Shown here piece by piece: positions 8,201 to 60,000 of a stretch of 64,000 bases of DNA. Every line of letters begins with the position of its first letter. Positions within the stretch are counted from its first letter, which is position 1. The position numbers and the translations under genes are program-made. The notes under the pieces are model-generated. The model was not told the DNA's origin and ran no database searches. It saw only the letters and a list, made by a program, of their open reading frames with translations. The stretch comes from Alphaproteobacteria bacterium. Lineage in GTDB: Bacteria; Pseudomonadota; Alphaproteobacteria; CACZRW01. The stretch lies in contig JAFWAG010000032.1 in assembly GCA_017507765.1 (NCBI GenBank), positions 20,919-84,918 of the forward strand. Direction: 5' to 3'.

Positions 8201-8632
8201 TTAAAACAGACCTTCGACAAAAGTATATATAAGTTCAGAAAAACTTGGGGCAACTTGCGTAACCATAAAATCCGTACGGTCAACGCATTGATAGCGGTTA
8301 TCCTTGCCAGAGTAGACCAAAAGCTCTTCAGAGGCTCTGCCAAGAATCATCTTCCCCGCCAAAGCGTCAATGCCCATAAAATCCATATTGGCATCAATAA
8401 TGCCCGGTAAAGAATAGCCTTTGCTTTCCCTGTCATAGGCCTTGGTTCCGTAAAGCTCCATACCGTTCCAAACCAAACCGTCCGTAATCTTTAAAAAGTC
8501 TATGTATTCTTCCGGAATGGGAATAACCCCATGGCTGGTCAGCATTGCACCCGCAAACTTTATCGCTCGCTCGTCCGCCGGTTCAAAAGTTACGGCTATG
8601 TCTTTTTTTAACGTATCGACTATTCTTTGCAT
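8201..8632 (-). CDS. SMI1/KNR4 (SUKH-1)-like putative immunity protein
   Basis: 143 aa; IPxPEEYIDFLKITDGLVWNG and C-terminal VAPSFSELIYTFVE resemble SUKH conserved segments (LPxdYxxFL..NG ... vAxSFxEFl); lies directly downstream of a candidate toxin gene. Confidence 0.45.
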   Translation of the reverse strand: MQRIVDTLKKDIAVTFEPADERAIKFAGAMLTSHGVIPIPEEYIDFLKITDGLVWNGMELYGTKAYDRESKGYSLPGIIDANMDFMGIDALAGKMILGRASEELLVYSGKDNRYQCVDRTDFMVTQVAPSFSELIYTFVEGLF

Positions 8633-8640
8633 ATCATTAC

Positions 8641-9537
8641 CTATATGTTGGCGGAACGTCCAATGCTGCTTTTAATGGCTATTTGCTGTAAAGCTCCTTC
8701 GGAATAACCGGAAACTGCGGTTTTATCGCCTTTACCTTTACCACCGCCGATTACCGAAGAGTCTTTGGGAATATAAACTTTACCCGAAGCAACCGGAACA
8801 TAAAGCTTGCGAAGCTTGCAACCATACGGCTGAGAAGTTATCTGCATATCCAAAAACTTATGCAAATCTTCATGATAAGGGTGCGTTTGAATCAGTAAAA
8901 GATTGGAAAAATCATTAGTACCGGAATAGTCAAAAGGTATTTTTAAATGAACGTCAAAGTTTTCCGGAGCCTTACCTCTTTTTAAACTTCTGAGGCCGTT
9001 TTCATCAATGCCTGCCGCCAAGATATCCTGTTCGTTATAATAAGCGATATAGCGCAAGAAATCACGCCTTGCACGCTTGAAAGCTCTGCGCAATTCTCCA
9101 CGGGTGTTAACGTCAACAGGGTTTATTTCTACCTCTACCAACGACATACCGGGAAGATTAAACTGGGATAGCTGCCATTCCCAAATGCCGGCGTCTCCGC
9201 TTGGCTCGACAACAGAAAAAGCCGCATAATTGCTTTCCTTGACCGGATTGTTATCCGGCTCGGAAGGCGCAACCGTAGCACCGGCAGATAGCTCATTCAA
9301 AGTCCACGGAGCTTCGGATTTTTCATTGTTATGAACCGGTATCTGAGGAGGAATCCCATACATTGAAGCCTCTACTCTATCTTTGGGATCGCCGTAATTG
9401 ATAATGCGAGGATCACGGCGATAACCATGATGAACAGGACGAAAAGAAGGTGTGATGCCCTGTTCCAGAGCTTCTTCAGCCTCTGCATCCCGGCCTCTTG
9501 ACGGAGGCGGATTTTTTGAACCAGACCAATCCCACAT
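8641..9537 (-). CDS. Hypothetical cytoplasmic protein with a zincin-like HExxH motif (candidate toxin/effector)
   Basis: 298 aa; no signal peptide; motif LLIQTHPYHEDLHKFLD (bxHEbxHxb pattern); immediately follows virD4 and is followed 8 bp later by the SUKH-like gene. Confidence 0.4.
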   Translation of the reverse strand: MWDWSGSKNPPPSRGRDAEAEEALEQGITPSFRPVHHGYRRDPRIINYGDPKDRVEASMYGIPPQIPVHNNEKSEAPWTLNELSAGATVAPSEPDNNPVKESNYAAFSVVEPSGDAGIWEWQLSQFNLPGMSLVEVEINPVDVNTRGELRRAFKRARRDFLRYIAYYNEQDILAAGIDENGLRSLKRGKAPENFDVHLKIPFDYSGTNDFSNLLLIQTHPYHEDLHKFLDMQITSQPYGCKLRKLYVPVASGKVYIPKDSSVIGGGKGKGDKTAVSGYSEGALQQIAIKSSIGRSANI

Positions 9538-9645: not shown

Positions 9646-11847
9646 CTATTCGTCTTCATCATCGTCATCACTGTCAACAATCTCCAACTTCAAGTCTTTT
9701 TCCAAAACCATAAGCTGAGAAAGAATGCTGCTGTCGGTATCTTCACGCTGAGCAACTATCCAATACGGAACATTCGGTGCGGGAGGAAGCGAACATTTCT
9801 TAACCATACTTTTATCCAAGAACCAACGGGGAGATTCCGCTCTAATCGGGAACATCAAGAATCCTTGCATCAAAACAATTTGCTGAGTGGCAGGCAAGCT
9901 TAACATTTCCGACGCCGTGATAACCGAGGTACCTTGGATACCGCGTGTTACGTTCGATGCAAACGGCGTAACGTTTCTCGACCAACCTTCCGTCCGTGAA
10001 GAAGATAAGCTTTCAACCGTTCTGGTACCTATCATCGTTTCAAAACGTTTGGCAGTCTGTTCGTTGTTCTGAGCCAAAATTACTTTCGCCGCCGTGGTGG
10101 TGATAATCGTTTCCAAGTCATCTTTACCATACTGACCAGAAATCTGACCCAAATCTTGGCCGATAAGCAGATAAGAAACCTTCTGACCTCGGCCAACCGC
10201 AGGGCCGTCTTTAACCGCTGCAAGCTTTGGCATTTGCGGGAACTCGTCCAGAACAAACAAAACCGGATACGGGCCAACGGTTTTGCCGTCCGGTCTTACC
10301 ATGTTCGGAGTGTTCGCAATCAAATATCCGGACATCAATTCCACAAAAATACCCGTAATCAAGCTTAATGCCCGAGCATCAACCTGATTAACGCTTAAAT
10401 AAACGGCAATCGGGTTCATTTCTCCGGTAATCGGGTCCTTCATGCCTCGCAAATCCGCAAACGTAAAGTCACTGTTCTTGGTACGGGCGCGAACCGCAGA
10501 GTTTTTAAAGATACCAATACCGGTTAAGCCGGTCGACAAAATAGAACCTCTTTCCTTATCCGGAGTACCCGCTAACTGGCTTAATTCAACTACGCAACGG
10601 TGGGCATAACCAAACTTTCTGGCTTCCGCAACTGCGGCATCAAGCATATCCCTCATCGGGTCAGCCAACATAGCCATCTGGTCGCCTTCGTCAACACGGC
10701 GTTTGATATCCGCCGCAATCTTCATTTGAGCTTCCGTCAACCAATCCAAAATCAACGCAATACAAGGTTCTGCGCCAACCCAGTATTCCGGCAAACCTTC
10801 CCAAGTGCCAATCGGAACATAGTTTTCAAGCGTAAGCATACCTTCACGAAGGCGTTGCAAAGCCGTAGCCGCATCAACATCAACCATATCCAAATAGTAG
10901 GTTTCCAAAACTTTGGCGTCTTCGTCGTCAAAGGTTTCTTCGTAAAGACGAGAAATAAAGTAGTCGTTGGCACGAGCTTTTTCACACTTGCTACAAATAA
11001 AGTGCAAGAATCCGGCTAAGGCGTTACGACCGGTTTTATACCAGTGCGGATCCGCACCACCTTTGGCTTCTTCAACCAAAACCGCAACCATACTGTCGAT
11101 ATACATATCACGTCCGGGACCAGGCGCAGGAATACAAACCGCAGATAACGGGTTCCAGTTCGGATAGAAAACACCTTGGGCAGGGTCATCTTCCGCGCCC
11201 CAGTTAATGATAAAGACAGGTCCCATGGTCTGACGATAACCGCTGGTCTTAAAACATAATTCCGGCTTCGGGTCGTTTACAATGATACTTAAACCATGAG
11301 ATTCCAAAATTGTCGGGATAACCACCGCAACCGTTTTACCGGTTCCCGGAGGCGCAACAACCAAAGCCGAAAGAGTTTCCGGAAGCTTTAAAAGTTTACC
11401 TTTAAAGCGGCCTAAAACAATAATGAAACCGCTGAAAAGCTTCATCTTTCGGACGTCCATATAGGTTGCTATACGGCCGGAACCGTGCAAGGTGGACATA
11501 AACTCATGCGGGTTGGTAATTACACCGATAAAGACAATCATAAAGAACAGGAAAAACGGGAAAGACGGCAGATAAAGTGCGAGTTTAAAGTCTCCTTTAT
11601 AGTCCAAATACTGACGGAACCAGTTACCGTAAGTCGTTAACAAATGACCGGGGTTGTCCACCAAAACCCCAAGGTAACGTCCAACATAAGAAAAGTTATC
11701 CGCACTTAGACCGTAACCGACCAAATAACTTAACGGGAAAATAAAAATCGCCAAGATAAAGGACGCAACCAAAGCAATCAAAAAGGTAAAAACAACCCAC
11801 GTGACAGCCTTGTCATATTGAGCCCATTCTTCTCCTCTTCTAAGCAT
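9646..11847 (-). CDS. virD4: Type IV secretion coupling protein VirD4/TraG (RvhD4-like)
   Basis: 733 aa; two N-terminal TM helices; Walker A VVAPPGTGKTVAVVIPT; IIVNDPKPEL (VirD4 'DpKgE' motif); Walker B-like LFVLDEFPQMP; acidic C-terminal tail DSDDDDEDE. Confidence 0.85.
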   Translation of the reverse strand: MLRRGEEWAQYDKAVTWVVFTFLIALVASFILAIFIFPLSYLVGYGLSADNFSYVGRYLGVLVDNPGHLLTTYGNWFRQYLDYKGDFKLALYLPSFPFFLFFMIVFIGVITNPHEFMSTLHGSGRIATYMDVRKMKLFSGFIIVLGRFKGKLLKLPETLSALVVAPPGTGKTVAVVIPTILESHGLSIIVNDPKPELCFKTSGYRQTMGPVFIINWGAEDDPAQGVFYPNWNPLSAVCIPAPGPGRDMYIDSMVAVLVEEAKGGADPHWYKTGRNALAGFLHFICSKCEKARANDYFISRLYEETFDDEDAKVLETYYLDMVDVDAATALQRLREGMLTLENYVPIGTWEGLPEYWVGAEPCIALILDWLTEAQMKIAADIKRRVDEGDQMAMLADPMRDMLDAAVAEARKFGYAHRCVVELSQLAGTPDKERGSILSTGLTGIGIFKNSAVRARTKNSDFTFADLRGMKDPITGEMNPIAVYLSVNQVDARALSLITGIFVELMSGYLIANTPNMVRPDGKTVGPYPVLFVLDEFPQMPKLAAVKDGPAVGRGQKVSYLLIGQDLGQISGQYGKDDLETIITTTAAKVILAQNNEQTAKRFETMIGTRTVESLSSSRTEGWSRNVTPFASNVTRGIQGTSVITASEMLSLPATQQIVLMQGFLMFPIRAESPRWFLDKSMVKKCSLPPAPNVPYWIVAQREDTDSSILSQLMVLEKDLKLEIVDSDDDDEDE

Positions 11848-11856
11848 TCCGCACCT

Positions 11857-13140
11857 CTATCCTTTTAACGCTTTTTCACATTCGGTTACAAAACCGGACG
11901 ATGTTTCTTTTTCCGCTTTCTGAACTACGTCTTGGAAAATCGGCAAGGAAACCGGTCCACCGGTACCAAAACGACATACAGAAACATTCATGTCTTCCCA
12001 AATATCCATCATATCAACGGCATTGATAACTTTGCTGTCTTCAATAATCAGAATATTATCCGCTTCATAGGCATCATCAAGCCCAAGTTTTTCTTTTACG
12101 CCTCCGGCAATGTCAAGCAATCTGCGAACCGGAGAAACCCGATGGCTGGTTTCGGAAAACCATAACGGGTCTTCATCATTAAAGCGCTCTTCATCAGCCA
12201 ACCAATCACCTGCAACATTATCAATAACCGCCGTTAAAATCCGGTCGCCGGAAATGCCCACAAAATCAACCTTAATATCATTTACTCGGACGTCTTTAAT
12301 CAGGGCAAAACCGTTTCTTTCAATCGCCATTTCTATGCCTCGGATACCTTCATCACGCATACGCTTTTGGTCTTCCGGACTGACTTCCGGAGCCGGAGGT
12401 GGAGGTTCATCATCATATTCCCAAGGCGGGGCTTCTTCTCTGCGGCGCTGTTCAAACTCTTCTTCGGCGGAAAGCTGTGCCGATTTGACTGCCGGAACCG
12501 CTGCGGTTTCTTCACCAGAGGGCATTTTTAAATGTTTTAAGAAACTGTCACGGTCAAAAATATCGTCGTCATCATCATTATCAATTTCGTCTCTGGTAGG
12601 AATATATTCGGCATTTTTGGTTTTATTACTGCTTTTTTTGCCGGAAAGAACGTCCATACGGTCACGGATTTTGGCGTCATCTTTACTGTCTTTGCGAGAC
12701 TTTTTCTTTTTGGGCTTAGCTCTGGCGTTGGAAGAAATGACATAACTTAACGCAGGGGGTCTGACTTTACGATAGGATTTCTTGCGAGTTATCACCAAAA
12801 CTCTTTTTTTCAAATGCCGACGGTGGAACTTTTCCAACATAGACATCGGGTAATGCAAAAGCTTGAAAAACTTTTCTCCCCATGGGTATCTGGCCAACAA
12901 AAGCCACCCCAAAAGCCAAAACGGAAGGAAAAGGAAAATAGCAAGGAAAAAGAACCATTCACTCGGCGTGTCAATAACCCAACCGTCTCTCCACATCTGC
13001 CACAAAAAGCTCCAATGCTTCATAAACGCCGGATCAAAGCCCCAAATACCATAAACGAAGGAACGGAACAAAGTCGCAAAAACAATGCTCCATACAGTGC
13101 CTACAACTATGAACCTTACGGCAAGATTCAAATACTTCAA
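11857..13140 (-). CDS. Hypothetical membrane protein co-transcribed with virD4 (N-terminal TM helices, Lys-rich then acidic linker, C-terminal possible NERD/restriction-endonuclease-like fold)
   Basis: 427 aa; 10 bp upstream of virD4 on the same strand; TM segments IVVGTVWSIVFATLF and FFFLAIFLFLPFWLLGWLLL; C-terminal GFALIKDVRVNDIKVDFVGISGDRILTAVIDNVAGDW weakly resembles NERD. Confidence 0.5.
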   Translation of the reverse strand: MKYLNLAVRFIVVGTVWSIVFATLFRSFVYGIWGFDPAFMKHWSFLWQMWRDGWVIDTPSEWFFFLAIFLFLPFWLLGWLLLARYPWGEKFFKLLHYPMSMLEKFHRRHLKKRVLVITRKKSYRKVRPPALSYVISSNARAKPKKKKSRKDSKDDAKIRDRMDVLSGKKSSNKTKNAEYIPTRDEIDNDDDDDIFDRDSFLKHLKMPSGEETAAVPAVKSAQLSAEEEFEQRRREEAPPWEYDDEPPPPAPEVSPEDQKRMRDEGIRGIEMAIERNGFALIKDVRVNDIKVDFVGISGDRILTAVIDNVAGDWLADEERFNDEDPLWFSETSHRVSPVRRLLDIAGGVKEKLGLDDAYEADNILIIEDSKVINAVDMMDIWEDMNVSVCRFGTGGPVSLPIFQDVVQKAEKETSSGFVTECEKALKG

Positions 13141-13380
13141 TATTACCCCCGTCTTTCGTACGATTTGGCGCTGTTCTTTTTTTTAAACCTTAATCGTATA
13201 GAAAATGTTAATAACCCCTGCCTTTTATTTTATCGGGTGCGACTTCCTTAAAACTATGGAACCCCTATTTTCTTTGCTCCTATCTTTTCCCCAAAAAGCT
13301 AATTATTTTAAGAAATACACTCCCCCTTATCGGAGAAATATTAGAAAGATTTTTTGGTTTTGTCAACATTTATTGAAAGC

Positions 13381-30150: not shown

Positions 30151-30245
30151 TTTCTTATCCGTACCTTATTGTCCTTTGTCGTATATTAAAAGCTGTTTGG
30201 CAATATTTCAACTGTTGCTGTCATGATTTATGTTTTTCCTGTTTC

Positions 30246-33431: not shown

Positions 33432-33512
33432 CTCGTTCTCTAATAAACCAAGCCTTAAACTTTAACCGCTTCTTGATTCTAAAGGAAAGAAAGTTAACAT
33501 ATGGTAATTTTA

Positions 33513-33546
33513 ATAAAAAAACCTCTTGAATCAGAGGTTTTTTTTA
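33513..33546 (-). terminator. Rho-independent terminator after the HTH regulator gene (symmetrical, usable in both directions)
   Basis: AAAAAAA-CCTCT-tgaatc-AGAGG-TTTTTTTT: 6-bp GC stem extended by A/U pairs and flanked by T-runs on both strands. Confidence 0.55.
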
Positions 33547-33568
33547 TAAAGATATGTAAGTTTAAAAA

Positions 33569-34636: not shown

Positions 34637-34680
34637 TTTGACAAAAATCCAGTAATTTTCTCAAAAAATTAGCGAAAAAA

Positions 34681-36387: not shown

Positions 36388-36396
36388 TTTCTTCTC

Positions 36397-38118: not shown

Positions 38119-40581
38119 CTATGACCGAGTTGCTTCCGAAGCTTTAATTGCGCTCTGATAATTTGCGAATTGAGTTTCACTCATCGTCAGAACCCGCTTT
38201 ACATCTTCACTGCCGTTAGCAATCCGTTCATAAACCTTTTGCTCTTCATAGGTAGTGGCCGTGCCTTGGCGGACTTTTGCCACTAAGTCTACATCATTTT
38301 TCATTTTATAAAAACTGTTGCCGTCAAGAGCGTTCATTTCCGCAAGACGCTGCTCGGAAGTCGTTCCGGTTATACCGTAAACTTCGCCTTTATAAACCAA
38401 AGCCTCTCTTTCCGCTGCGGACATTCTTTCAACCGCATCGGCACCGTAAACATTGCGGAGTATTTGAGCATTTCTATATGCTTGTTCGGCACTGTTTACC
38501 CCACCAATACCTTCGTTATAGATACTGTTGGCATTGGCATTACGACGCAAAGCAATTTTTGCCTGTAAAGATTCCCGGGTGGAATAAGAACCGTCTACAT
38601 TTAAGGCTTTCTTCGCCAATTCGATATCCTGCGGTACGGCATTAAAAGAAGCACTGTTCATACCGGCGTATCTTGAAGTTTTTGCATCGGCAACATAGGT
38701 ATTATATCCGGCGCTTGAAGCACTGCCGGAACCTGAACCTCCGCCTGCCCCACCACTGCCGGAGCTGGAAGAGCCGCCGCCTTTATATCTTTGTTTAGGT
38801 GCAGCGCCCATAGAGCTAATCATACTCCGGCTAGCACGCCAGTTGGCTAAACGACCGTTGCCTTTTTGAGATTCCAGAACTCCCATTGTCGCAGAGGCTT
38901 GGGTTACAACCGCAGCGACATTGGCGCTTACCATGCCTAAGCGGTCGCCAATGTCTGAGCCTATGGAAACGTTGGAAAAGTCTGTCGCAATCTGATCAAT
39001 CAAAGATAAAATCTTTATGGCAAAAACACAGCAAATAGCCGCAATGATGAAGTTAAAGGTGGAAAATTGTATTGCTTCATTCATTTTGTATACTTGGTTC
39101 GTGTTAAAGTAATCCTGCAAGGTTGAGGCTTCTTTTAGAAGCGTACTGCTGGATATGGTTTCACTGTTACCGCCAAAAGCTATTTCCACCAAAGCTATCG
39201 CTAATGACAAGACTATAGCCATGGAAATAAATACCATCACGACATGAAGCAAAAGATAGAAACCTTTTTTCGCAAACTCTATCGTTGGCGGAAATACCCA
39301 CGCAACAATTAACATCGGCAATAAAACCAATAAAAATCCCAACCGGAAACAAGCGTCTATCAGTTTAAAGACAAAAAGCAATGTCAAAAGGAAACAAACT
39401 AGCCAAATGACAACGCCCGTAAACAACATTTTAAGACTGGGGAATTGAACCGGTAAAATACCGGACTGTTCCGCCGTCCAAGCATGGCATAAAATCGAAG
39501 ATGACATGGCAAGTCCATAGGCGGTAGTATTATATAAATTACCGACCATACACATAAGTGCGTTATAAAGCTGACTGTTCAAAGCGGCGTTTTCCGTGCC
39601 GGACGGTTCGGTTTCCATAAGAACACAATAATGCGGAAGCATACTTACACCCAGAAGACCTATAATAGCATCGTTCTGGTCTTGCTCCATAGCTTGAATC
39701 TCGCTCTCTTTCTTTCTATCTAAGTCATGGATAGCCGCCTGACAATGGACAGAAAGCGTACAGGCTCCTTCCGGAGGATTGGCTTTACATTCGTTACATT
39801 CTGCTTTTTGTTTCGCATTCATTAATATATCCAACCCACCACATGGAGAAGCACAGGCATAACGAGCGTACACTTCGTTCTTTTGCAAGCGGTATTTTTC
39901 TTCTATCTGTTGCCTTTCCACCTGATAATTACGGTCTAAGTCGGAAATCTGGTCAGCGTTGGGACGTATCTTATCCGTTCCGGTAAAGCCTTGGGTAACC
40001 GCCATGCTGACTTCTGTCGCTCCGACAATTATGGGCGAAATCAATAAATCCGTAACCATGCTGACCGGCTGAACAAGGATTGCTCCGGCAAGCATTGCTT
40101 TGCACAAAATGGAAATAATGCCTTCAAAAAACTCAACCGGATTTTGTTCCGCCAGAGAACCGATATACCTGCCGACCTGAATAATCAGCCAAATACCAAG
40201 GAATACAGTTAAAATCTCTATACAGCCATGGGCTATTTTGTTGTAAACCGCCGTGGCTAAGGTGTTAATTGAACGGAAAATCGTATCAAATAAAGTACAC
40301 GCCCAACAATTATTGACATGAGCAAGCAGAACCGAACCGCTTGCCGGACAGTCGCCGTGCAAAGCATCACTGTAAACTGCGGCGGATTGCCCAATGTCTT
40401 GAGCCCCTTCGGTGATAATTTCGTTGGCTCCGCTGACAACGTCATCAACGGTTTCTGTTTGCGTCTCGGTCGTATACTGCGTACCGGTTGTCTGAGCAAA
40501 GACAGGAGCGGACATCAGCCATAAAGCTATGGCTGCGCATGATATAGCCTTGATAAAAAATGTCTTTGGCAATTTTATCAT
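38119..40581 (-). CDS. virB6: VirB6/TrbL-like T4SS membrane protein, paralog 3, with long Gly/Ser-rich hydrophilic C-terminal extension
   Basis: 820 aa; signal peptide; VNNCWACTLFDTIFRSIN motif; about 6 TM; C-terminal GGGSSSSGSGGAGGGSGSGS plus about 200-aa hydrophilic tail. Confidence 0.65.
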   Translation of the reverse strand: MIKLPKTFFIKAISCAAIALWLMSAPVFAQTTGTQYTTETQTETVDDVVSGANEIITEGAQDIGQSAAVYSDALHGDCPASGSVLLAHVNNCWACTLFDTIFRSINTLATAVYNKIAHGCIEILTVFLGIWLIIQVGRYIGSLAEQNPVEFFEGIISILCKAMLAGAILVQPVSMVTDLLISPIIVGATEVSMAVTQGFTGTDKIRPNADQISDLDRNYQVERQQIEEKYRLQKNEVYARYACASPCGGLDILMNAKQKAECNECKANPPEGACTLSVHCQAAIHDLDRKKESEIQAMEQDQNDAIIGLLGVSMLPHYCVLMETEPSGTENAALNSQLYNALMCMVGNLYNTTAYGLAMSSSILCHAWTAEQSGILPVQFPSLKMLFTGVVIWLVCFLLTLLFVFKLIDACFRLGFLLVLLPMLIVAWVFPPTIEFAKKGFYLLLHVVMVFISMAIVLSLAIALVEIAFGGNSETISSSTLLKEASTLQDYFNTNQVYKMNEAIQFSTFNFIIAAICCVFAIKILSLIDQIATDFSNVSIGSDIGDRLGMVSANVAAVVTQASATMGVLESQKGNGRLANWRASRSMISSMGAAPKQRYKGGGSSSSGSGGAGGGSGSGSASSAGYNTYVADAKTSRYAGMNSASFNAVPQDIELAKKALNVDGSYSTRESLQAKIALRRNANANSIYNEGIGGVNSAEQAYRNAQILRNVYGADAVERMSAAEREALVYKGEVYGITGTTSEQRLAEMNALDGNSFYKMKNDVDLVAKVRQGTATTYEEQKVYERIANGSEDVKRVLTMSETQFANYQSAIKASEATRS

Positions 40582-40672
40582 CGCTTTGTCCTTTTAAAAA
40601 GCCTCCTATCCTTCAAATATTATAACCTTTTTCCCGTTCCTTTAGTATGACAGTTTTTTGATTCCTATCCCT

Positions 40673-42715
40673 TTATGGAGTAACCATATCCTGCTCTCTG
40701 GCATACTTTGTGTAATCTAATCTGTCTTTAGCACTTGGAACAGCATCTCTTATTTCATTAATCTTATTAACATTCTTGGAGAATGATGCCTGTTCTTCCG
40801 GCGACAAACGATCATAATAACGTTGTTTAAGCTTCTGATATTCAAGCTTTCCTTCAAGCTTGTCCAGTCTTTCACGAGCAGCGTCTTGAGCCTCTGGTGA
40901 ATGTCTGCCGCTGGTATCGTTAATAATCATCATCTGATCCGACATTTCTTTAACCCTCTTAAAGTCGTCTTCGGCTATATTCAACAAAGAGGCGTTATGA
41001 GAATTAAACTTGCCGGTAGATTGATTATACAATACATCGTCCATTAATTTTGCTTGATAATTAGGAATATCAGGCTTAGTTCTTTCGGGTTCCGTATCAT
41101 TATGAGTATCCGGAACAACATCTTTCTTCGATGAAGACGACGATTTACTGTTCTTTACGCTTATCGCCATAATCGTTGCCGTAGCTTGCAGAGTCGTTGC
41201 CGTTACATAAGAAGCCATAGCACCGACTTTATCTCCTGCCTGCGAGCCAAACTCTACTTCCGTGTATTCACTGGCGGTTTTATCAACAACGTTCATTACC
41301 TTTACGCCAAAGAAACAGCAGGCAAAGGCAAAGAAGAACGATGAGCCGGATAAATCCATAGCGTCCCTAAGGCCTTGGATATCGTTAAGCATACACATCT
41401 GCCGCAAGTTTTCGTTTTCAAGCTCGAATGCCGTTATAAGCATAAGTATTGCCAAGGCTATGACTATCGCCAAGACAATGAAGTTCATCATAACATGAAC
41501 CAACATCTTGAAGCCTTGTTTCGCATAGTTCATAGATGACGGGAAAACCCATGCGACAATCAAAAACGGTAAAACTGAAGCTAAAATACCCAAACGAATA
41601 AGTGCGTCCAATACTTTGAAAACAAAGACAACCAAAATTATCAGACAGGTAAGCCAAATCATAATACCGGATATCAGCATAACAAAATCCGGACCGTTAA
41701 AGAAGAAATACGATGCTGCGTGCCAAGATTTACAAATAATCGCAGACGCAAACGCCATACCAAACGATACTTCTTTGTGTATCATCTCGGTCAAACACCC
41801 AAGAGCATTATAAATCTGCGTGTTAAGCATACGGCCTTCGTCCATATCCGGCTCTGCCAACGAAAGAGAACAACCGCTCATGGTCGCAAATGACGGGGCA
41901 GCAGAAAGGTTTTCGTAGGCGTCCATTTCTTCAAGCCACCTTAAAACGATACCAAACGCCGCATGGGTATTTATACCAAGAGGAAGAGTCAACGGGAAAG
42001 AAGAATAAATGTCGGCGGTAAACTGTCCGGTTTCCGATATTAAACGCCACATATTGCGCTGGTCTTTGGAAATCGCATCATAAAAAAGCGGCTTATCAAG
42101 TTCGGTTTTCCGGCTAAGCGTTTCCGTGGTTTCATCAAGTCCGGCATAGCTTTTTATAATAACTTGGTTAAACTCTACCGCTCCGACGACAATCGGCGAA
42201 ATCAACAGGTTGGATACATAGCTTATCGGCATGGTTAAAAGCGCACCGGCAAACATGGCTTTGAACAATGTCTTGCCCATTTTCGTCCAAAAGTCAGCAG
42301 GCTCTTGCGGACTGAAAGACATAAGATGTTTGCCAAGGTGATACAAAAGCCAAAGTCCAAGCAAAACCGTTAAAACCATCCGGCTTGGTCCGGCGGTAAG
42401 TTCATAAACTCCGGTACTTACCGTATCAATGGCATCAAAAATCTTTTCCACCAAAAAACAAGACCAACAGTTTGATACATGGTCGGCAACAATCTGGCTG
42501 CAAGTATCACAGTCGCCCAAAATTACTTTAACGACATTGTCATACATATCGTTAATGTTGGCGCCCATCCGGATTAAAGACAGGAACGTATCACGCAGAA
42601 TATTAACATCGGCAACTTCATCGGCGGCAAAAGAGCGCAAAGGAGCAAGAACAGAAGCAACAAACGCCGCAACTGCCGGAAGATATCTTTTAATGATGTT
42701 TTTCATTATCATCAT
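40673..42715 (-). CDS. virB6: VirB6/TrbL-like T4SS membrane protein, paralog 2, with hydrophilic C-terminal extension
   Basis: 680 aa; signal peptide; VSNCWSCFLVEKIFDAID motif; multiple TM; about 170-aa charged C-terminal tail. Confidence 0.65.
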   Translation of the reverse strand: MMIMKNIIKRYLPAVAAFVASVLAPLRSFAADEVADVNILRDTFLSLIRMGANINDMYDNVVKVILGDCDTCSQIVADHVSNCWSCFLVEKIFDAIDTVSTGVYELTAGPSRMVLTVLLGLWLLYHLGKHLMSFSPQEPADFWTKMGKTLFKAMFAGALLTMPISYVSNLLISPIVVGAVEFNQVIIKSYAGLDETTETLSRKTELDKPLFYDAISKDQRNMWRLISETGQFTADIYSSFPLTLPLGINTHAAFGIVLRWLEEMDAYENLSAAPSFATMSGCSLSLAEPDMDEGRMLNTQIYNALGCLTEMIHKEVSFGMAFASAIICKSWHAASYFFFNGPDFVMLISGIMIWLTCLIILVVFVFKVLDALIRLGILASVLPFLIVAWVFPSSMNYAKQGFKMLVHVMMNFIVLAIVIALAILMLITAFELENENLRQMCMLNDIQGLRDAMDLSGSSFFFAFACCFFGVKVMNVVDKTASEYTEVEFGSQAGDKVGAMASYVTATTLQATATIMAISVKNSKSSSSSKKDVVPDTHNDTEPERTKPDIPNYQAKLMDDVLYNQSTGKFNSHNASLLNIAEDDFKRVKEMSDQMMIINDTSGRHSPEAQDAARERLDKLEGKLEYQKLKQRYYDRLSPEEQASFSKNVNKINEIRDAVPSAKDRLDYTKYAREQDMVTP

Positions 42716-42723
42716 TTCAACCT

Positions 42724-44454
42724 TTACCCCGGATCCGAAAACAGCTTTTTACCCGTATTGGCAACCAACGAAGCACTTGACTGACCTATGGTAGCCAACG
42801 AACGACCTGCCGAAGCACCCATTTTATCGCCGACAGCATTACCAAAACCGGCACCCGCAACCGAAGAAAACTCTAAGCTGACATTGTCGACAATACCAAC
42901 AATTAAAATCGCAAAGACGAAACAAGCCAAAGCAACCAACATACTGGTACCGGAAAGATTCAAGTTCTTTGCCAGTTCTTCTATGTGGTTTAAGTAAAAC
43001 AGCGTGCGGATATCGTTAACTCCCGCCTGACCGGCATCGCCTTGGAATGCCATCATAACCAGTAAAATTGCCAACGCTAAGATAATGGCCAAGATGATAA
43101 ACATCATCACGATATGAACCAGCGATTTAAATCCTTGGCGTGCATAGCAAGATGTTGACGGGAATACCCAACAAATGATTAACAACGGCAGTAAAACACA
43201 TAAAATGCCAAGCCGCAAACAAGCGTCCAAAACCTTAAACGTGAAAATAAGCAGTAATAAGAAACTGGCGAGCCAGATTAAAGCTCCGGCGATGAAAGTT
43301 GGAATATCCGGATAGGAAATTACCGCATAGTGGTTAGCACCCTTGGCATAACAAACTATACACGAACCGACGGATATACCGAAGCTAAGCTCCTCTTGCA
43401 TATTTTTTACCATGCACATCAAAGCGGCTTTGATTTCCGGATTCAAGGCGCCGTACAAGGTTGCTTTATCTCCGCTTTCTTGAGCTGCGGCCATGGCGGC
43501 TTCGGCATCTTCGGCAACGTTATCCGTACAGTTGGTAAGAGAAGCAACATCTCTGCCGCCGCTTAAACGTCCCAAAGTTATAGATTTGTACATCTCGTCA
43601 AGCTGCCTATCCGCATCAACGCTTATCGCAACGCCGCCGGCAACAATAACAGCTCCGAAAGTAACAAAAACCGGATTTGCGGTTACGCTGCCGCCAAGCA
43701 TTGAAGCTCCGCCGACGGTACTGACGTAATCGGCGGCCTTGGAAATAGCGGCGATTTCCTCTTTGCGAGTTTCCATTTGCTCTTCCGTCCAGCGTTCGCC
43801 GGTCTTGCCGTCAACCAAATAGCTTTTGCCATACTCTGCCGACAAAGCCGCCTGCCCTCCGCTTTCATTGGCAAAACTGCGCACAACTACCGTAGAAAAC
43901 TCACTGGCGCCGACAATTATCGGCGATATAACAACTCCGGTAAAATGGCCTATGTTCAAGCTTAAAAACGCAAATGCAACTATCGCCTTTAAAAAGGTTC
44001 TTGCCATTTTTGTCCAAAACTCTTCCGGATCTTGGGGGACAAAGGCGCTGATGTGTCCTGCTATATGATACAAAATCCAAAACGCAAGCAAAAGCGCAAG
44101 CAAAGCCATAAAACCAGTTTTGGAAGCTTCAAAAACTGCGTAAGAAAGCTCATTTATCGCATCAAAAATGATGCTGAACATACGGCATGACCAACAATCT
44201 AAAAGATTGTCCGATAATACTTTGGCAGAATTGGGACAGGGGCCGGCAAAAAAGTTTAAAAAAGATTTGACCGCATCGTTAATGCTGCCTCCGGTCGCAT
44301 CGACAACGCCGTCAATAAAGCCCGCCGCCATTTGACCAAGGCTTTCCAAAAACGTCATGTCATCGCTTTGGGCGCGAGCCGTCCCCGGCATCAGCAAAAC
44401 AAGCAGTGCAAACAGTAATCCGGGGAAGCCGGCTATAATCTTAAACTTTGTCAT
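42724..44454 (-). CDS. virB6: VirB6/TrbL-like T4SS membrane protein, paralog 1
   Basis: 576 aa; signal peptide MTKFKIIAGFPGLLFALLVLLMPGTARA; LLDCWSCRMFSIIFDAIN motif; multiple TM. Confidence 0.65.
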   Translation of the reverse strand: MTKFKIIAGFPGLLFALLVLLMPGTARAQSDDMTFLESLGQMAAGFIDGVVDATGGSINDAVKSFLNFFAGPCPNSAKVLSDNLLDCWSCRMFSIIFDAINELSYAVFEASKTGFMALLALLLAFWILYHIAGHISAFVPQDPEEFWTKMARTFLKAIVAFAFLSLNIGHFTGVVISPIIVGASEFSTVVVRSFANESGGQAALSAEYGKSYLVDGKTGERWTEEQMETRKEEIAAISKAADYVSTVGGASMLGGSVTANPVFVTFGAVIVAGGVAISVDADRQLDEMYKSITLGRLSGGRDVASLTNCTDNVAEDAEAAMAAAQESGDKATLYGALNPEIKAALMCMVKNMQEELSFGISVGSCIVCYAKGANHYAVISYPDIPTFIAGALIWLASFLLLLIFTFKVLDACLRLGILCVLLPLLIICWVFPSTSCYARQGFKSLVHIVMMFIILAIILALAILLVMMAFQGDAGQAGVNDIRTLFYLNHIEELAKNLNLSGTSMLVALACFVFAILIVGIVDNVSLEFSSVAGAGFGNAVGDKMGASAGRSLATIGQSSASLVANTGKKLFSDPG

Positions 44455-53078: not shown

Positions 53079-54056
53079 TCAGGTAACTTCGGTAACTGCT
53101 CTTATATTACCTTCGCGGTTTATTTGTACAACCCTTAACTTTTCATGCATTTCCTTGATGGTTTTGGCTCGGTCAATGGTCGGATAACTATGCAAAATAC
53201 GGTCTGTAAAGGCTTTGTAGGCTGCTTCGGAGTTTTCTGCATGAATGGTCGCAAAACAGTTTTCATGGCCGGAACCCATAAGCTCCCATAAAGCACCCGC
53301 ATTTGCCGTGGAAATCTCTCCGCCGATAATTGCGTCCGGCGTAAAACGAACAACCAAGTCAATAATCTTCGGATAGGTTAAATTGTTGGTTTGCTCCGTT
53401 CGGGATAAAACCAAGTGAACTCGGTTTAAATGAGGGACTATCAATTCGCGCGTATCTTCAATCGTAACAATACGCTTACTGGGTTCCAAGATTTTTAAAA
53501 GATTGTTCAAAAACGTTGTTTTACCGGTTGCCGTTGCACCGCTGACCAAAATATGGTCGCCACGTTTTATCGAAAACATAAGACGTTCAAACGGGTCTTC
53601 CGGTTCCGCCATATGCGCCAACGGATTTAATTGATGAAGCTTTTCACCTTTGCGAAGACCGTAATCGCCAAAGCCAAACTTTACATCTTCGGTATGAACA
53701 CGCACACACATTGCAACACCGCCGGTCAAATCTTCATTGTCATACATGACATTACGACCGGCAATTGCCGAAAAACGGTGGTCTCCGGGAAGGGTAGCAT
53801 AAACTACCGGCGTTCCTCTGTCCGGATCAAAGGGAAGTTCATACGTATTCGCAATAATATGAATAATATCATTTAAATATGTACGGGAAAGGTTTGCATC
53901 TTGCTGACAAACCCAAGGAATAGCTCTGCGGCCACGCAAACGGAGCCAGATTTCCCCCGGGCGGTTAACCGATATTTCTTCCACATTATCTTGGCTGTAC
54001 CAATAGGAAAGATAACGCAAAGTAGATTCAAGAACTTTAAAATTAGAATCCGTCAT
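53079..54056 (-). CDS. virB11: Type IV secretion ATPase VirB11
   Basis: 325 aa; Walker A ILVSGATATGKTTFLNNLL; Asp/His boxes; typical VirB11 length; 39 bp downstream of virB10. Confidence 0.9.
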   Translation of the reverse strand: MTDSNFKVLESTLRYLSYWYSQDNVEEISVNRPGEIWLRLRGRRAIPWVCQQDANLSRTYLNDIIHIIANTYELPFDPDRGTPVVYATLPGDHRFSAIAGRNVMYDNEDLTGGVAMCVRVHTEDVKFGFGDYGLRKGEKLHQLNPLAHMAEPEDPFERLMFSIKRGDHILVSGATATGKTTFLNNLLKILEPSKRIVTIEDTRELIVPHLNRVHLVLSRTEQTNNLTYPKIIDLVVRFTPDAIIGGEISTANAGALWELMGSGHENCFATIHAENSEAAYKAFTDRILHSYPTIDRAKTIKEMHEKLRVVQINREGNIRAVTEVT

Positions 54057-54095
54057 AACGTAACTCTCCCGCTTTCTATTACCTTAGTCAAGCTA

Positions 54096-57000
54096 TCAGA
54101 AAAGCCGAGGTACAGGATTCCCCGCAGAAGAAGGACTACGCTGACCTTCCGGCAAGGGAGGAGGTTCATAAACCGGCACACTGCTCTGTTTCGGCTGACT
54201 GGGAGCTATCAACGGAACTTCGTTAGGATTCTTCCGTTTAGCCAAAGAACCGGAACCTGCTCCACCGGCTACCGTTGCGGCGTTACCGGGCTGATAAACC
54301 GTCGTGGTTTTAACCTGAGAGCTGCTGCCTGCCAAAGGACGCTCCGGCTTCTTATCCGCAATCAACGGACGCTCCTCTTTGATTATATCATCATCAATAG
54401 AGTTAGCAGCATCCGGAGAACGTATCCACAAATCCTGATTAGCAAATGCCGTAAGCTTGGTTCCCGAAGGTATGGTAACCACGGTCATAATATCCGAGTA
54501 ATCTTTCAACATCTGCTGAATAATGGAGCTTGATGTATCCGTCCAGCTATCACGAGCATCTTCATACGCTTCCTGACGGTCGGACTTCGCAGACTCTCCG
54601 CCATAGGCTCCCGGTACAGGCTTGCTGCTAGAAGCCATAGCAATTGTAATGGCATCGGCGGCAATTTCACTGACCAGAGGCGTGAAGTATTTATCAAACA
54701 AGCGACGGTCAAGATATCCCGGAATGCCTCCACGGCCTTGGGCGTCTCCGCTTATACCTTCAAAGACAAAGGCAATGCCGTCAGGACGAATCAAGCGTTC
54801 CCAAGTAATATCAACCTTGGATACAAAGCCGCCACCTTGCGAATCTCCGCCAGAGACTCCAATCAAACGGCTACCCGCAGGAATGACTATGTTTCTTCCG
54901 TCTTCGGCATAGATATTTCTTTCCACAATCGCCGTAACCGGAGTATCCGTAAAGCGGGAATCAATCGTGTTAACCAAGACTGCCGGTATAGCTTTGCCTT
55001 TGACAATCAAACGATTCATCTTCACAGGAAGACTGGAAACCGATTTCTTAATACCTAAGCTTGACCAATCTTCATCTTCCGTGTTGTTTTTAAAGTTCGG
55101 TGCCTTGAAATGTCCCCATTCAACATTAGCTCTGCGGTCTTGCTGTAAAGCCATAATTCTTCTGACCCGAGAGCTGTCATACCGTTCTCCGGGGCCAAAT
55201 CCGCCGCCTTTACCAAGGTTCTTATTACCGTAGTCGCCGAAAGCTCCTAGATTATCAAATACCGGCGGAGTTTTCGAAGCGTCTCCGGCAATCGAAGAAG
55301 CCATAGATTGCTGCGACGGAAGACGAGAAATGCTTCCTTCGTTACGAGCAAACGACCGTATCTTTTCGGCAATGACGTCTTTAACCGAAGCAACAACTTC
55401 GCCAAGAGTATTCAAAAGCTCGCCGTCTTCATTGAGACTGCCGACAACAACGCCGTCCATATCGACAACATCTCCGTTTTCGTCAAGCCAACCGATATTA
55501 TTTCCTTCGGTATCAACCAAGAAATCTTTTTCCGAAACGGTACCGATATGACGGCCTCTGGCATCAACAATGGAACCATCAGCCATGACTCTGCCGTCAA
55601 TTACGTTGCCTTTTAAATCAACCAATTCGCCGTCTTCGTTAACAAAGCCAACAACTTTGCCGTCTTTGTTCACAATCGCTCGACGAGTGTCTGTATAGCC
55701 GATGACCTTACCGGAACTATCGGTTAAGACCCTGCTCTTGGGTGCGACACCTATTCTTTTGCCCTGTAAGTCAACTACGGTACCGTCTTCGACAACTCGC
55801 CCAACAATCTTTCCGACTTTGTCACGAACCATGCCGTCAGCACCGACTGTACCCATAAGAACGCCGTTTTTGTTGTATGCTTTCTTGCCGCCGAAGCCAC
55901 CCAAAGCTTGTTCCACAGTGGAAACAACTCCGATAGTCTCTCCTTTAGCATTAACAACAACGCCGCTTTCCAAACAATTACCGATGACACGTCCGGTCGC
56001 ATCACGGACAGTTCCGTCTTCCCAGATAATACCGCTAAAGTTTCCGGTTTTGCCGATAACCGGCTGACCGACAAGACGCATAGCCTTTTTAGGCTGGAAT
56101 GCTGTAGTTGAGGCAACGCCAATTTTCTTACCAAGCATATCTCTTACTACACCGCTGATTTCAGCTCTGCCAACGATTTTATCGCCGGAAGCACGGACTA
56201 ATCCGTCTTTACCAATCGTGCCGACTGCAAGCCCGCTAGAAGCTAAGACCCGACGGCCGACAAGTTCGTTGCGAATATCAAGATTAGAGTTGGGAACAAA
56301 ACCAAGCAATTTGCCGGAAGTGTCTTTTGCGATGCTCTGCGCATCAACCGAACCGATAACTGCACCGTCCGAAAGAATCATACCGTCTTCGTCTATGGTA
56401 CCGATTACTTTTCCTTCCCGACCGTAAACTTTCAAGGCAAGCATCTTAGAAACTGCCTTGGCAGGAACAAAGGCTATAGGACGACCTTGGGAATCTTTGA
56501 CGATTGCCCGACTGTTAACTGTGCCTAAAGCCGTACCCGTCTTGGTAATCAAATTACCTGTATCATTTATGGTACCGACCGCTAAACCGGTAGAACCGTA
56601 TGCGGTAAGTCCGCTGTACGGATTTTTCATAACCGCAGGAACGAAACCAATAATTGTACCTTCGGCATTATGAGCAATACCTTTGCCATCTACGGTACCC
56701 AACGGAGCATCAGAACTATCCCTAACAACACCTTCGGCATCAACTTTACCTAAGACTGCTCCTCTGGCATTGACAACGGATTTATCAATGTAGGAACTGC
56801 TTACCTTCATGGAAACGTATCCTAATACTTCTCCCATAGTGTTGCGGAACAAGCCATGTTCATCAACCAGACCTACGGTATTACGCTCTCCGTCCAAAAT
56901 CTTGCCCGTTGTATCCGGAATACCGATTAAGTTACCTTCGCTGTCATAAACCGTGCTAGCATCTTTTGAGCGAACAAAGCCAATTACTTCACCGGAGAAG

Positions 57001-60000
57001 CTTCTGGCAATGCCATAGTTTTCAATCGTTCCTATCTCGTTACCGTTTAAGCCAAGAACCATTCCGTTTTGACCGACACGACCGATAACTTTTCCGTCAG
57101 CTGCCTGAACTTCCTCCAAATCCGAGAAGGCGCTTTTTACTGCTTCGGGGATAAAGCCGACTATCTTACCGGACGAATTAACGACAACTGCCTTATCGTT
57201 AGCTTTGCCGTAAATAACTCCTTTGGAATCACGAACATCGCCAGCGTTATCAACTACTCCCATTAAAAGCCCAGAAGCATCATACGCTTTATCGCCGGCA
57301 AAACCGTTGACCTTAACCGCCGGAACAAAACCGGTAATGTTTCCGTTTGCTTCAAGCATAAAGCCGAACTTGTTCAAAACGCCTAAAAGCTTGGCATTAG
57401 CATTCAATACCTGACCGTCTGCATTGGCTGTTCCTATCGGGTCTCCGTTCGGATTGTATACCGTCATGCCAAAGAAAGCATTCTTGGTGTCAGCCGGAAT
57501 AAAGCCAATAATACGATTAGAGCTATCTTTGGCTATGCCTAAAGCGTCTATCTCTCCGATTGTGCGACCGGAAGTGTCAGTTACTTTACCATACGGAGAA
57601 ACAATGCCGACAACCATTCCCGTCGAACCTAAGACTAACCTGCCGGAAAATACTGATAATTCACCTTCTGCGGCTTCGTTTGAAGAAACTCTGCCGATAT
57701 CACGACCGTCATTGCCTCGGATTGAACCGTCCGGCATACGCTCGCCAATAATCATATTTCCGCCGCCACGAACTTTCAAATCAGGAACTACACGTCCCAG
57801 AACTTTACCGTCTACACCGACAACACGTCTGTCGTTCAAAGTTCTGCCTATGACATTGTTGCGATTGTCGATAACCGTACCGTCGGCAAGAACTCTTCCC
57901 AAATGGTTGCCGTTTTCATCAATCAGCATTCCACGGGTTAAAACTTTCCCAAGAACATTGCCATTGGCATCAACAACATCTCCGGATATGGTCAAGCAAT
58001 CCATAATCTTGCCGTCAGCTCCGACAACATTACCGTTTACCAAAACTCTGCCAAGGAAACGGCCGTCCAAACCAATTACCGAAGAAGCATACTTTACCAA
58101 AGAACCGATATTATTGCCGTCACTGCCGGTAACTTTGCCGTCAGCTCCGATACAACCAAGATAAGAACCGTTTTTGTTAATAACGTTAGCTCCCAAACCG
58201 GTGTAACCGATAACTTGACAAGCTCCACGAATTACCGTGCCTTTATAAGAAGCAATTACCGCAATCAAACGATTATCATCGTCAATTACCGACCCGTCGG
58301 TAGCAATCCGTCCTATGGTGCGACCGTTATCATCGCTTACGGTAGCGGACGGTTCTGCCAAACCAATCTGTTCACAGTTCGGAGTTACCGCAGGACCGTA
58401 GGCAACTATACCGCCAATGATAGAGCCGCTTCGGTCAATAATTGAACCGTCATCGGTAATCATGCCAAGCTGGGCGCCTTCTGCATCAATAACCGTACCG
58501 TCAAAAGACTGGAAGCCTTTTGATTGATATCCGGCAAAAATCGGCATACCCATACGCATACTCATACCGACATATGGGACTAAGCTTTTACTGTTGCTGT
58601 TTCCTCCGATAGCCGTGCCATCCGGAAGAACTCGACCGGATAATCCGTTTTCTCCCAATAAAGAGCCGTTTGGATTGATAACACCAACAAACTGACCTCT
58701 ATCATTAACCGCAGTTTTTCCCGTTAAAATACCGCCAATAACTCTGCCTGCCGAATCAATAGCAAAACCGGAAGGAAGGATAGTGGCAAACTGCCGTCCC
58801 TGAACATCGACAACATCGCCGGAAACAGTTAACCAACCGGCAAAAGTTCCGTCTTCGGTAAATACATTATAAGAAGAAACCGTTGAACCGATAACGTGTT
58901 TGCGGGCGTTAATAACCATACCATAAGGAAGCGCCTTACCAATTACGGTTCCGGTTGTATCAATTACGGAGCCGTCAATGTCTATCCACCCCAAAGGCTT
59001 AGCTTCGGCGCTGAAAGCAATACCGGTGGGAACCGTACCTGCGGTAACGGAACCACGTTCCAAAACATCTCCGACGGCGGAAAGGCTGCCAAAAGCACGC
59101 ACCCCGTCCCAAGCCGAACCGTCAGGCATAGCAAAACCGGCTAAGCTTCCGTCATAACGGATTAAAGCTCCTTCCGGAATTACCGCACCGGCAGGGATTT
59201 TATTACGGTTTAAAACAACACCGTTTGCCGAAACGCTTCCTAAGGCAACTTTGTCTGTCAGGCTTTCAACCAAAGCGTCGGGGCGAACTATACCCATAAT
59301 ACCGCCTTTGGACGACATCGCTAAAGTTCCAAGCTCCCAAACTTTACCGATAATATCCTTACCTTGGGAGTTAACTACGGTAGCGTCAGCCAAAACTTTA
59401 CCGATAACCTTGCCGTTTGGTCCCATGGCTATACCGTTGTCCGCCGTATAGCCGATAACGTCTCCACGATTACCGATAACCATTCCTTCGGGAACAATCC
59501 GACCTATAGCTATTCCGGCAGAAGAAACCACAATCCCTGATGCACGAACCGTTCCAATAATTTTGCCGGTTTCATCGGTAACTTTACCTGCCGGACCTAC
59601 TTTACCGGCTTGTTTGCCGTCAAAGCTTACAAATAAGCCTGTGGGCATAATCCGACCGACATAGGCACCTTTTTCATTCATAACCGAACCGTCAGGCATA
59701 ATCCTGCCGATATTGTTATTACGATTATCGACTACATCTCCGTTCGGCAAGGCGTTACCGATAACTTCACCGCTACGGCCGATAACACTTCCAAGCCGAA
59801 CAGCTTTGCCCAAAACTTTACCGTCATTGGAAATAATGAACAATGCAGGAGTCATGCGACCAATCTGGGCGCCGGTACGGTCGTAAACCGCACCTTTACT
59901 ATCAATACGACCTAACATACGGCCGGAAACACCCAAAGCAACAACCCGAGACGGAACAACTTTACCGACAATATTACCTTTGGTATCAATAACCATTCCG

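Follow-up and report, generated by a model that had tools for sequence, protein, structure and literature searches.

A virD4-linked HNH-like protein and its SUKH partner in gut Alphaproteobacteria, probable descendants of a Tox-ColE7/Imm-SUKH module

What do two small genes do that follow a type IV secretion system (T4SS) coupling protein gene, virD4, in an uncultured alphaproteobacterium? The genes lie in a 64,000-nucleotide stretch of contig JAFWAG010000032.1 (Alphaproteobacteria bacterium, assembly GCA_017507765.1, positions 20,919 to 84,918 of the forward strand), hereafter the window, and encode proteins of 298 and 143 amino acids (aa). A preliminary description, made from the sequence alone, had proposed a T4SS-delivered metallopeptidase toxin of the zincin type (HExxH) with a cognate SUKH-like immunity protein. 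The analysis reported here points to a different ancestry for the larger protein, an HNH-type nuclease toxin domain whose metal site is kept and whose general base is lost, and to a pair that is inherited together with virD4.

Gene order around virD4 and its conservation

The two genes belong to a block of four on the minus strand. The elements of the block are as follows:

13338..13366 (-): best sigma-70-like promoter match, TTGACA-17-TAATAT, upstream of up427 (consensus match only)
11857..13140 (-): up427, first gene of the conserved block, with no Pfam or NCBIfam match and 775 homologues (AlphaFold2 (AF2) and Foldseek)
9646..11847 (-): virD4, T4SS coupling protein of 733 aa with an acidic C-terminal tail, DSDDDDEDE (Pfam)
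8641..9537 (-): HNH-like protein of 298 aa, with an MWDWS motif, disordered linker, core domain and basic tail (open reading frame (ORF), alignments, AF2)
8767..9195 (-): core domain, aa 115-257, homologous to Tox-ColE7-type HNH toxin domains (AF2, profile search, hhalign)
8836..8964 (-): beta-beta-alpha-metal motif, aa 192-234, in which HEDLH is aa 222-226 (alignment, AF2, mapping to colicin E9)
8644..8757 (-): basic C-terminal tail, aa 261-298, isoelectric point (pI) 9.8 (alignment, pI, predicted local distance difference test (pLDDT))
8201..8632 (-): SUKH/YrhA-family partner of 143 aa, pI 4.6 (NCBIfam YrhA, hhalign)

The virD4 product was recognised by Pfam through the domains T4SS-DNA_transf (5.6e-55), TraG-D_C (7.7e-21) and TrwB_AAD_bind (9.3e-18). 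A gap of 108 bp separates the end of virD4 from the 298-aa ORF, and 8 bp lie between the stop of this ORF and the start of the 143-aa ORF; both ORFs, their spacing and their place after virD4 are as the preliminary description had given them. A promoter-like site precedes up427 and no terminator-like site was found on the minus strand between the four block genes, an arrangement consistent with a single operon. Translation of the SUKH gene is probably coupled to that of the HNH-like gene, and the junction between the two is tight or overlapping throughout, with distances of -8 to +31 bp in most loci. Directly downstream of the SUKH gene, at 7388-8113 (-), a further gene encodes a 241-aa protein in which four Sel1 repeats are combined with a hydrophobic segment at the N-terminus and a repeat linker rich in Ala, Lys, Glu, Pro and Thr; it is kept in the closest relative (locus L001) only and therefore stands outside the conserved block.

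A word-indexed search with the 298-aa protein returned 43 homologues, all unnamed, and a scan of one genome per species yielded 62 further loci, which together with the window form a 63-sequence alignment. Each of the 62 species-level loci belongs to an uncultured alphaproteobacterium of gut, rumen or faecal origin, for example 'Acetobacter sp. CAG:977', Ca. Scatocola, and UBA and RGIG metagenome-assembled genomes (MAGs). The one-strand order virD4, HNH-like gene, SUKH gene is present in 62/62 loci, which bears out the link to the T4SS coupling gene proposed earlier, and one or two up427 paralogues precede virD4 in 59/62, that is, in all loci whose contig reaches that far. Gene order is unchanged in further metagenomic contigs (e.g. 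L070).

The divergence of the three proteins runs in parallel. The subtype of the HNH-like protein tracks the VirD4 clade, and pairwise identities are correlated, with Spearman coefficients of 0.70 for VirD4 and the HNH-like protein, 0.72 for VirD4 and SUKH, and 0.83 for the HNH-like protein and SUKH. The pair diverges faster than its neighbour: where VirD4 is about 83% identical, identity falls to about 50% in the HNH-like core and to about 40% in the SUKH protein. The association of the pair with VirD4 and up427 is hard-wired and vertically inherited, and a functional coupling of the pair to VirD4 is likely.

Fold and ancestry of the two proteins

The 298-aa protein had no match at E<=1 in Pfam and NCBIfam, hence no peptidase family, and phmmer returned no match among PDB sequences. 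Its N-terminus (MWDWSGSKNPPPSRGRDAEAEE), read directly, lacks a hydrophobic signal-like segment, in agreement with the earlier statement that the protein carries no export signal. The zincin-type motif of the preliminary description is literally present, as HEDLH at aa 222-226, and the chance of about 1% quoted for it matches the 0.011 motifs expected from the protein's own composition. The Glu of this motif, however, is not conserved across the 63 orthologues: residue 223 is Glu in 20, Thr in 13, Asp in 11 and Asn in 7, with H222 and H226 invariant, and it is variable also in the 43-sequence alignment A1. A zincin needs its catalytic Glu, and E223 varies; moreover, the HEDLH helix is, in the AF2 model, the alpha-helix of a beta-beta-alpha unit and belongs to a region homologous to colicin DNases. 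Together with the lack of any peptidase match, these observations exclude a zincin metallopeptidase. The 298-aa protein is almost certainly not a zincin, and the literal HExxH is a chance Glu within an HNH-type HxxxH. The preliminary description had itself suggested looking at HExxH conservation in orthologues, where the Glu is kept in only 20/63, and at profiles of both proteins, which uncovered the expected SUKH similarity in one and no zincin similarity in the other.

The family of the core domain was traced with sequence profiles. A core-domain profile (A2), scored against 1.84 billion cluster representatives, matched 646 proteins at E<=1e-3, of which 413 reached E<=1e-10. In many of the long matches the domain forms the extreme C-terminus, preceded by Pfam modules of the types RHS repeats, PT-TG, PT-HINT, MuF_C and Portal_Mu, with a borderline HNH match on the domain itself. 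N-terminal modules of the RHS, PT-TG, PT-HINT and MuF types are hallmark carriers of polymorphic toxins. Thirty HH-type toxin domains from the A2 matches were gathered in a second profile, A4, which aligns with A2 at 100% probability (hhalign, E 5e-45). Searched against the PDB, A4 matched Cas8f-HNH (1.4e-6), the colicin E7 DNase (4e-6, over ~80 residues) and pyocin AP41 (4e-5), and more weakly pyocins S2 and S8 and colicins E2 and E9. Its hhalign probability with colicin E9 was 90.5%, for which the PDB matches provide an independent check. Among the A4 members, Pfam recognised HNH in 22/30 and Col-Pyo_DNase in 14/30. The link to colicins is significant only by way of this intermediate HH-type family, as direct hhalign of the virD4-linked profile with colicin E9 was weak (probability 1%) and the A1 profile matched PDB sequences only marginally (E 0.95).

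The AF2 model has a mean pLDDT of about 84-96 over aa ~115-260, and residues 1-105 are disordered. The beta-beta-alpha unit consists of strands 194-198 and 213-217 and helix 218-234 (pLDDT >85). When the full-length model was compared with the PDB by Foldseek, the top matches were all HNH domains and none was significant (best E 0.26); the fold call therefore rests on profile homology and secondary structure. On these grounds, the core domain can be assigned securely to the HNH beta-beta-alpha-metal fold and, within it, to the Tox-ColE7 clade, which is characterised by conserved HH, H and H and by immunity proteins of the Imm-ColE7 or Imm-SUKH type (Zhang et al. 2012, PMC3482391). The recently described divergent HNH toxin Rehh/Tox-REHH was excluded as a relative, its conserved residues and their spacing (R46, H52, E53, H102, H121) being a mismatch.

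The 143-aa partner scored 67.7 bits against NCBIfam NF038335 (YrhA family), above the cutoff of 55, so that its earlier description as SUKH-like is upheld; its Pfam matches to SUKH_5 and SMI1_KNR4 were below threshold. A word-indexed search with this protein gave only 7 close matches, and orthologues were drawn from the 62 loci instead. Among 23 orthologues, Pfam reported SMI1_KNR4 in 9, SUKH_5 in 8 and SUKH_6 in 4, all below the gathering score. Across the family the SUKH protein is acidic (median pI 5.1; 4.6 in the window) and the HNH-like core basic (median pI 8.8), as would be expected of an inhibitor that mimics DNA and blocks a DNA-binding protein.

The two lines of homology meet in one toxin locus. 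The gene downstream of an RHS toxin recovered with A2 (P0137) encodes a 157-aa protein with Pfam SMI1_KNR4 (PF09346), and the SUKH family profile (A3) aligns with it at 98.9% (hhalign, E 2.4e-17) and with plasmid YrhA proteins at 1e-16 and 4e-12. Since both partners are homologous to the RHS toxin and its SMI1_KNR4 neighbour, toxin and inhibitor were inherited together as a module, and the pair very probably descends from a Tox-ColE7/Imm-SUKH module. Of the T4SS toxin and immunity pair proposed at the outset, the homology to a toxin with its SUKH immunity protein stands; the metallopeptidase identity had to be given up.

In annotated genomes the same pair appears under the labels 'HNH endonuclease' and 'YrhA family protein' (Enterobacterales), and a homologue was found on 458 plasmid records, 433 of them typed conjugative (e.g. 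IncHI2 pMS114_1 and a Pantoea megaplasmid). One such pair, an HH-type HNH endonuclease and a YrhA family protein on the Salmonella IncHI2 plasmid NZ_CP058672.1 (locus L071, 163151-164242), is convergent with the F-type transfer genes traG and trhH. A further locus (L067:4745-6675) carries three tandem HH-type, catalytically complete toxin-domain paralogues of 221, 191 and 224 aa with basic N-termini and no SUKH-like gene within 6 kb, which is odd for toxins.

Active site, protein ends and neighbouring T4SS genes

Invariant positions of the 63 sequences are F160, Y166, G176, E192, N193, H197, P201, G206, N212, H222, H226, Q232 and P248, and the local pattern, ENF(N/D)VH-x-(K/R)-(I/V)-P-x-(D/E)-(Y/F)-x-G-x(5)-N-L-x-L-I-x(3)-P-x-H-x(3)-H, is of the HNH type. 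The profile alignments allow a mapping onto colicin E9, whose residue roles are taken from bioRxiv 10.1101/2020.04.29.068437:

H197 (E9 H102): metal ligand
L198 (E9 H103; E7 H545): general base, end of strand 1
N212 (E9 N118): structural Asn
H222 (E9 H127): metal ligand
H226 (E9 H131): metal ligand

The metal ligands H197, H222 and H226 and the structural N212 are invariant (63/63). At the first His and the general-base position, the 98 toxin-type representatives read HH, and none of them has the MW[DE]W N-terminus; the whole virD4-linked clade has L, I, V or M (rarely R, Q or T) in place of the second His. The same clade has an invariant E192-N193, where the toxin types have x-G. Judged from these alignments, the general base is lost clade-wide and the metal site is strictly conserved. 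A PacI-like substitute base in the omega-loop, Y204, was considered and excluded, this residue being Phe in 16/63 sequences. Between the window and its closest relative, the rate of nonsynonymous change (dN) is 0.09 against a saturated synonymous rate (dS), so that dN/dS itself is uninformative.

More distant relatives of an EN type (P0102, P0104, P0122, P0124, P0129, P0179) have lost all three His. Two loci, L065:2229-7204 and L064:5006-6419, likewise encode an HNH-like protein without any metal-binding His, whose gene directly abuts an up427-like gene with no virD4 between; L065 also has a SUKH-like gene. In this locus a gene for a 921-aa coiled-coil-like protein lies upstream and an RHH_4 gene downstream, and the opposite strand encodes a 449-aa multi-pass membrane protein.

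Outside the core, the protein occurs in three architectures:

Long form (including the window): N-terminal MWDWS; linker variable, often P/Q-rich; core present; basic tail present (aa 261-298, pI 9.8)
16 short forms: N-terminal MWEWS; no linker; core present; no basic tail
14 'EVLFP' forms: no N-terminal motif; no linker; core present; basic tail present

The linker of the window protein is disordered to about aa 107 and is longer and P/Q-rich in many orthologues, and the basic tail has low pLDDT except for a helix at 280-292. The MWDWS motif (9523-9537 (-)) resembles the start of the first core helix, IWEWQLSQ (I-W119-E-W-Q-L-S-Q; 9172-9195 (-)), and could be a mimic within the protein or a recognition element that was duplicated. 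No other ORF starting with MW[DE]W was found in the window or the 62 loci; a shared signal could therefore not be shown.

The first gene of the block, up427, has homologues that are all named hypothetical, among them one identical protein from an Alphaproteobacteria MAG, and gave no match in the plasmid collection. In an AF2 model built with database homologues (pLDDT >85 for aa 1-110 and 255-427), a helical, Trp-rich membrane region takes up aa 1-110, and a disordered, charged linker joins it to a domain at the C-terminal end (aa ~255-427). The C-terminal domain carries an invariant and very acidic motif, GDWLADEERFNDE-PLWFSE-SHR-SPV, and its best matches by fold in Foldseek (SfsA 4dap, E 3.6e-3, probability 0.99; AF1548 1y88, probability 0.99; the R2 RLE domain; Hjc) point to a PD-(D/E)xK (restriction-endonuclease-like) fold, in which the canonical (D/E)xK lysine is not conserved. 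A second up427 paralogue occurs upstream in many species.

The remaining T4SS genes lie elsewhere in the window:

38119..44454 (-): three tandem VirB6/TrbL-like genes (820, 680 and 576 aa; Pfam TrbL 8.4e-5, 1.7e-5 and 9.9e-4, below gathering score)
53079..63997 (-): second T4SS island with virB9, virB10 and virB11
62588-63997 (-): virB9/CagX-like gene with a C-terminal SPOR domain
54096-62591 (-): giant VirB10 of 2831 aa, with a TrbI domain and beta-flower repeats
53079-54056 (-): virB11

The T4SS genes thus form scattered islands (virD4 at 9.6-11.8 kb, VirB6-like genes at 38-44 kb, virB11/10/9 at 53-64 kb) with the housekeeping genes proS, leuS, rne and amiC among them. The system is scattered, rvh-like and chromosomal, and not a plasmid conjugation module; it is rvh-like in its layout. 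In the giant VirB10, TrbI covers only aa 2529-2722, and the part ahead of it holds 14 Bflower_2 repeats as well as a Bflower (beta-flower) domain and repeats of DUF3659. Downstream of the VirB6-like genes, at 29245-38099 (-), runs a series of large ORFs without Pfam match (486, 568, 1061 and 301 aa), broken only by a gene (33569-34636) whose product has two HTH_3 domains; the unmatched ORFs may encode additional divergent parts of the T4SS or effectors. A further two ORFs without matches are located at 25916-27799 and 27832-29070.

Possible functions and comparison with known systems

Which function would fit a toxin-derived pair that is fixed beside virD4? We favour, at roughly even chances, a VirD4-coupled cargo with its inhibitor and with non-canonical or lost DNase chemistry. 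Descendants of a Tox-ColE7/Imm-SUKH module have, in this view, become a fixed part of the virD4 operon in a clade of gut Alphaproteobacteria. The acidic SUKH protein would bind and mask the HNH-like protein in the producer cell; the close coupling of the two genes, their correlated divergence and their opposite charges are indirect signs of such binding. The HNH-like protein would be passed on to VirD4 and leave through the T4SS as cargo bound for neighbouring cells, with the N-terminal MW[DE]WS and/or the basic C-terminal tail as candidate recognition elements and with possible assistance from the membrane-anchored up427. That the HNH-like protein is an exported cargo that harms its recipient is a tentative proposal, whose chances we put a little short of even. 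It may cut DNA via a substitute base, with the newly invariant E192-N193 as candidates, or bind DNA in a metal-dependent manner; since a hydrophobic residue stands in place of the general-base His, it probably does not hydrolyse DNA in the standard colicin manner, and canonical DNase activity is distinctly unlikely. The invariant metal site, the dN value and the opposite charges of the partners are consistent with continued function. T4SS-delivered effectors with an HNH-superfamily DNase domain have precedents in TfdA (PMC11253643) and LtdD (PMC13600162), and killing of neighbouring bacteria has been proposed for the rvh systems of free-living basal Rickettsiales (PMC11077975).

Several observations weigh against an exported toxin. 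The pair is single-copy and vertically inherited without toxin-type exchange, unlike arms-race effectors, and the traits of classical polymorphic toxins are missing: no carrier domain is present and one toxin type tracks the VirD4 clades. The loss of the general base throughout the virD4-linked clade is a second point, as this His is nearly invariant among His-Me fingers; the few groups known to lack it are PacI, where a Tyr takes its place, and domains that are inactive or bind DNA only, namely those of Smad and ENPP (PMC5714182). Among the EN-type relatives, P0129 is flanked by up427-like and SUKH-like genes without virD4 between, and the persistence of these partners beside His-less proteins suggests that the complex matters apart from catalysis. 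Finally, no known T4SS signal domain was found on the HNH-like protein by Pfam at E<=1, and the XVIPCD structure 7mu9 was absent both from the PDB profile-search matches (two chains only) and from the Foldseek matches listed.

The same observations lend themselves to an alternative in which the pair has been domesticated and the HNH-like protein is not a toxin; it would be a catalytically dead, metal-binding and perhaps DNA-binding module which, with SUKH and up427, joins the VirD4 coupling complex as an accessory subunit or regulates it, in the role of an adaptor, a chaperone, a plug or a platform for DNA handling. Besides the lost general base and the His-less relatives that retain SUKH and up427 neighbours, the strict single-copy synteny in 62 species, with divergence that follows VirD4 and no polymorphism, would be natural for such subunits, and two nuclease-fold proteins flank a DNA-translocase-like ATPase. 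The order up427-virD4 may also parallel that of membrane partner and coupling protein in other T4SSs, such as dotM-dotL, where the membrane partner is followed by the coupling protein. On the other side, the metal ligands and the Asn are invariant in 63/63 sequences, seemingly beyond what upkeep of the fold requires; the pair evolves much faster than VirD4 (about 50% and 40% identity where VirD4 has 83%), as toxins and their immunity proteins typically do when they co-evolve; and we know of no precedent for a toxin and immunity pair recruited as T4SS subunits. We consider domestication the main and a serious competitor of the cargo reading, though on balance unlikely, and its stricter form, in which the exapted Tox-ColE7/Imm-SUKH pair and up427 make up an obligatory DNA- or substrate-handling sub-complex of VirD4, rather unlikely. 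If true, the exapted pair would represent a new class of T4SS coupling-complex accessory, widespread in a clade of gut Alphaproteobacteria.

A cytoplasmic, non-secreted module of the toxin-antitoxin or exclusion kind, which came to stand in the virD4 operon by chance and might stabilise the locus or act on incoming DNA, is improbable. The tight translational coupling of a toxin-like gene and its inhibitor would suit it, as would the HH-type HNH and YrhA pairs that also stand alone on plasmids and chromosomes. Addiction modules, however, are patchy and mobile, whereas the present pair is fixed beside virD4 in every species of a deep clade, has clade-specific N- and C-terminal extensions and lies in a chromosomal housekeeping neighbourhood without obvious need of stabilisation. 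The zincin metallopeptidase toxin delivered by T4SS, for which the literal HEDLH had spoken, has a negligible probability in view of the variable Glu and the HNH-type helix described above.

To return to the VirD4-coupled cargo, its interest lies in the fact that bacterial killing by T4SS is established mainly for the X-T4SS of Xanthomonadales, and for rvh-like systems is no more than a hypothesis, put forward for the basal, free-living Rickettsiales. The pair offers a specific protein as candidate substrate, with MW[DE]WS and the basic tail as candidate recognition elements and up427 as candidate membrane partner. The lost general base combined with the kept metal site constitutes a natural experiment, whose outcome may be a nucleolytic protein, a DNA-binding protein or a machine part. 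Our literature search found no paper on this cassette and nothing relevant on T4SS in gut RF32-type Alphaproteobacteria.

The proteins without a general base offer one comparison. PacI, the Smad MH1 domain and the ENPP nuclease-like domain share with the window protein a beta-beta-alpha fold that lacks the general-base His (PMC5714182). PacI, however, has an omega-loop Tyr as substitute, where Y204 of the window protein is replaced by Phe as noted above, and catalysis is lost in Smad and ENPP, whereas the three metal-binding His are invariant here.

Colicins E7 and E9 and the pyocin S2 and AP41 DNases resemble the HNH-like protein in the HNH beta-beta-alpha-metal motif and, at the profile level, in the pattern HH...N...H...H. 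In both cases a co-expressed acidic protein is at hand, which neutralises the toxin in colicins and pyocins and for which the SUKH partner is the putative counterpart. Unlike these bacteriocins, where the Im protein is a four-helix bundle, the partner here has a SUKH fold, and the window protein lacks receptor-binding and translocation domains as well as the equivalent of H103.

The X-T4SS effectors and inhibitors (X-Tfe/X-Tfi), among them the GHH nuclease TfdA and the HNH/EndoVII protein LtdD, are similar in concept, namely a VirB/VirD4-exported HNH-superfamily effector with a cognate inhibitor (PMC11253643, PMC13600162). The window protein differs in lacking the VirD4-binding XVIPCD domain and the general base and in belonging to another HNH clade. 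The setting differs too: an alphaproteobacterium in place of Xanthomonadales, a scattered rvh-like T4SS, and an effector gene directly after virD4.

The closest counterparts are the Tox-ColE7/Imm-SUKH modules themselves. Both partners are homologous, the spacing of H-x-K-x-P, GG, N and HxxxH is the same, the SUKH/YrhA gene lies directly downstream, and the inhibitor is acidic. The window pair, however, has L, I, V or M for the second His, and its E192-N193 is newly invariant; it has a short MW[DE]WS and a disordered linker where the modules have an RHS, PT-TG, Hcp or LXG carrier; and it is fixed in the virD4 operon, vertical and not polymorphic. What is new here is the T4SS context, the fixation in the virD4 operon in every genome recovered and the lost general base, with the clade-specific terminal motifs and the membrane partner of predicted PD-(D/E)xK fold as further distinguishing features. 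Classical polymorphic toxins are stated not to use T4SS (Zhang et al. 2012, PMC3482391), and the present pair would add to such domains the secretion route that this classic survey said they avoid.

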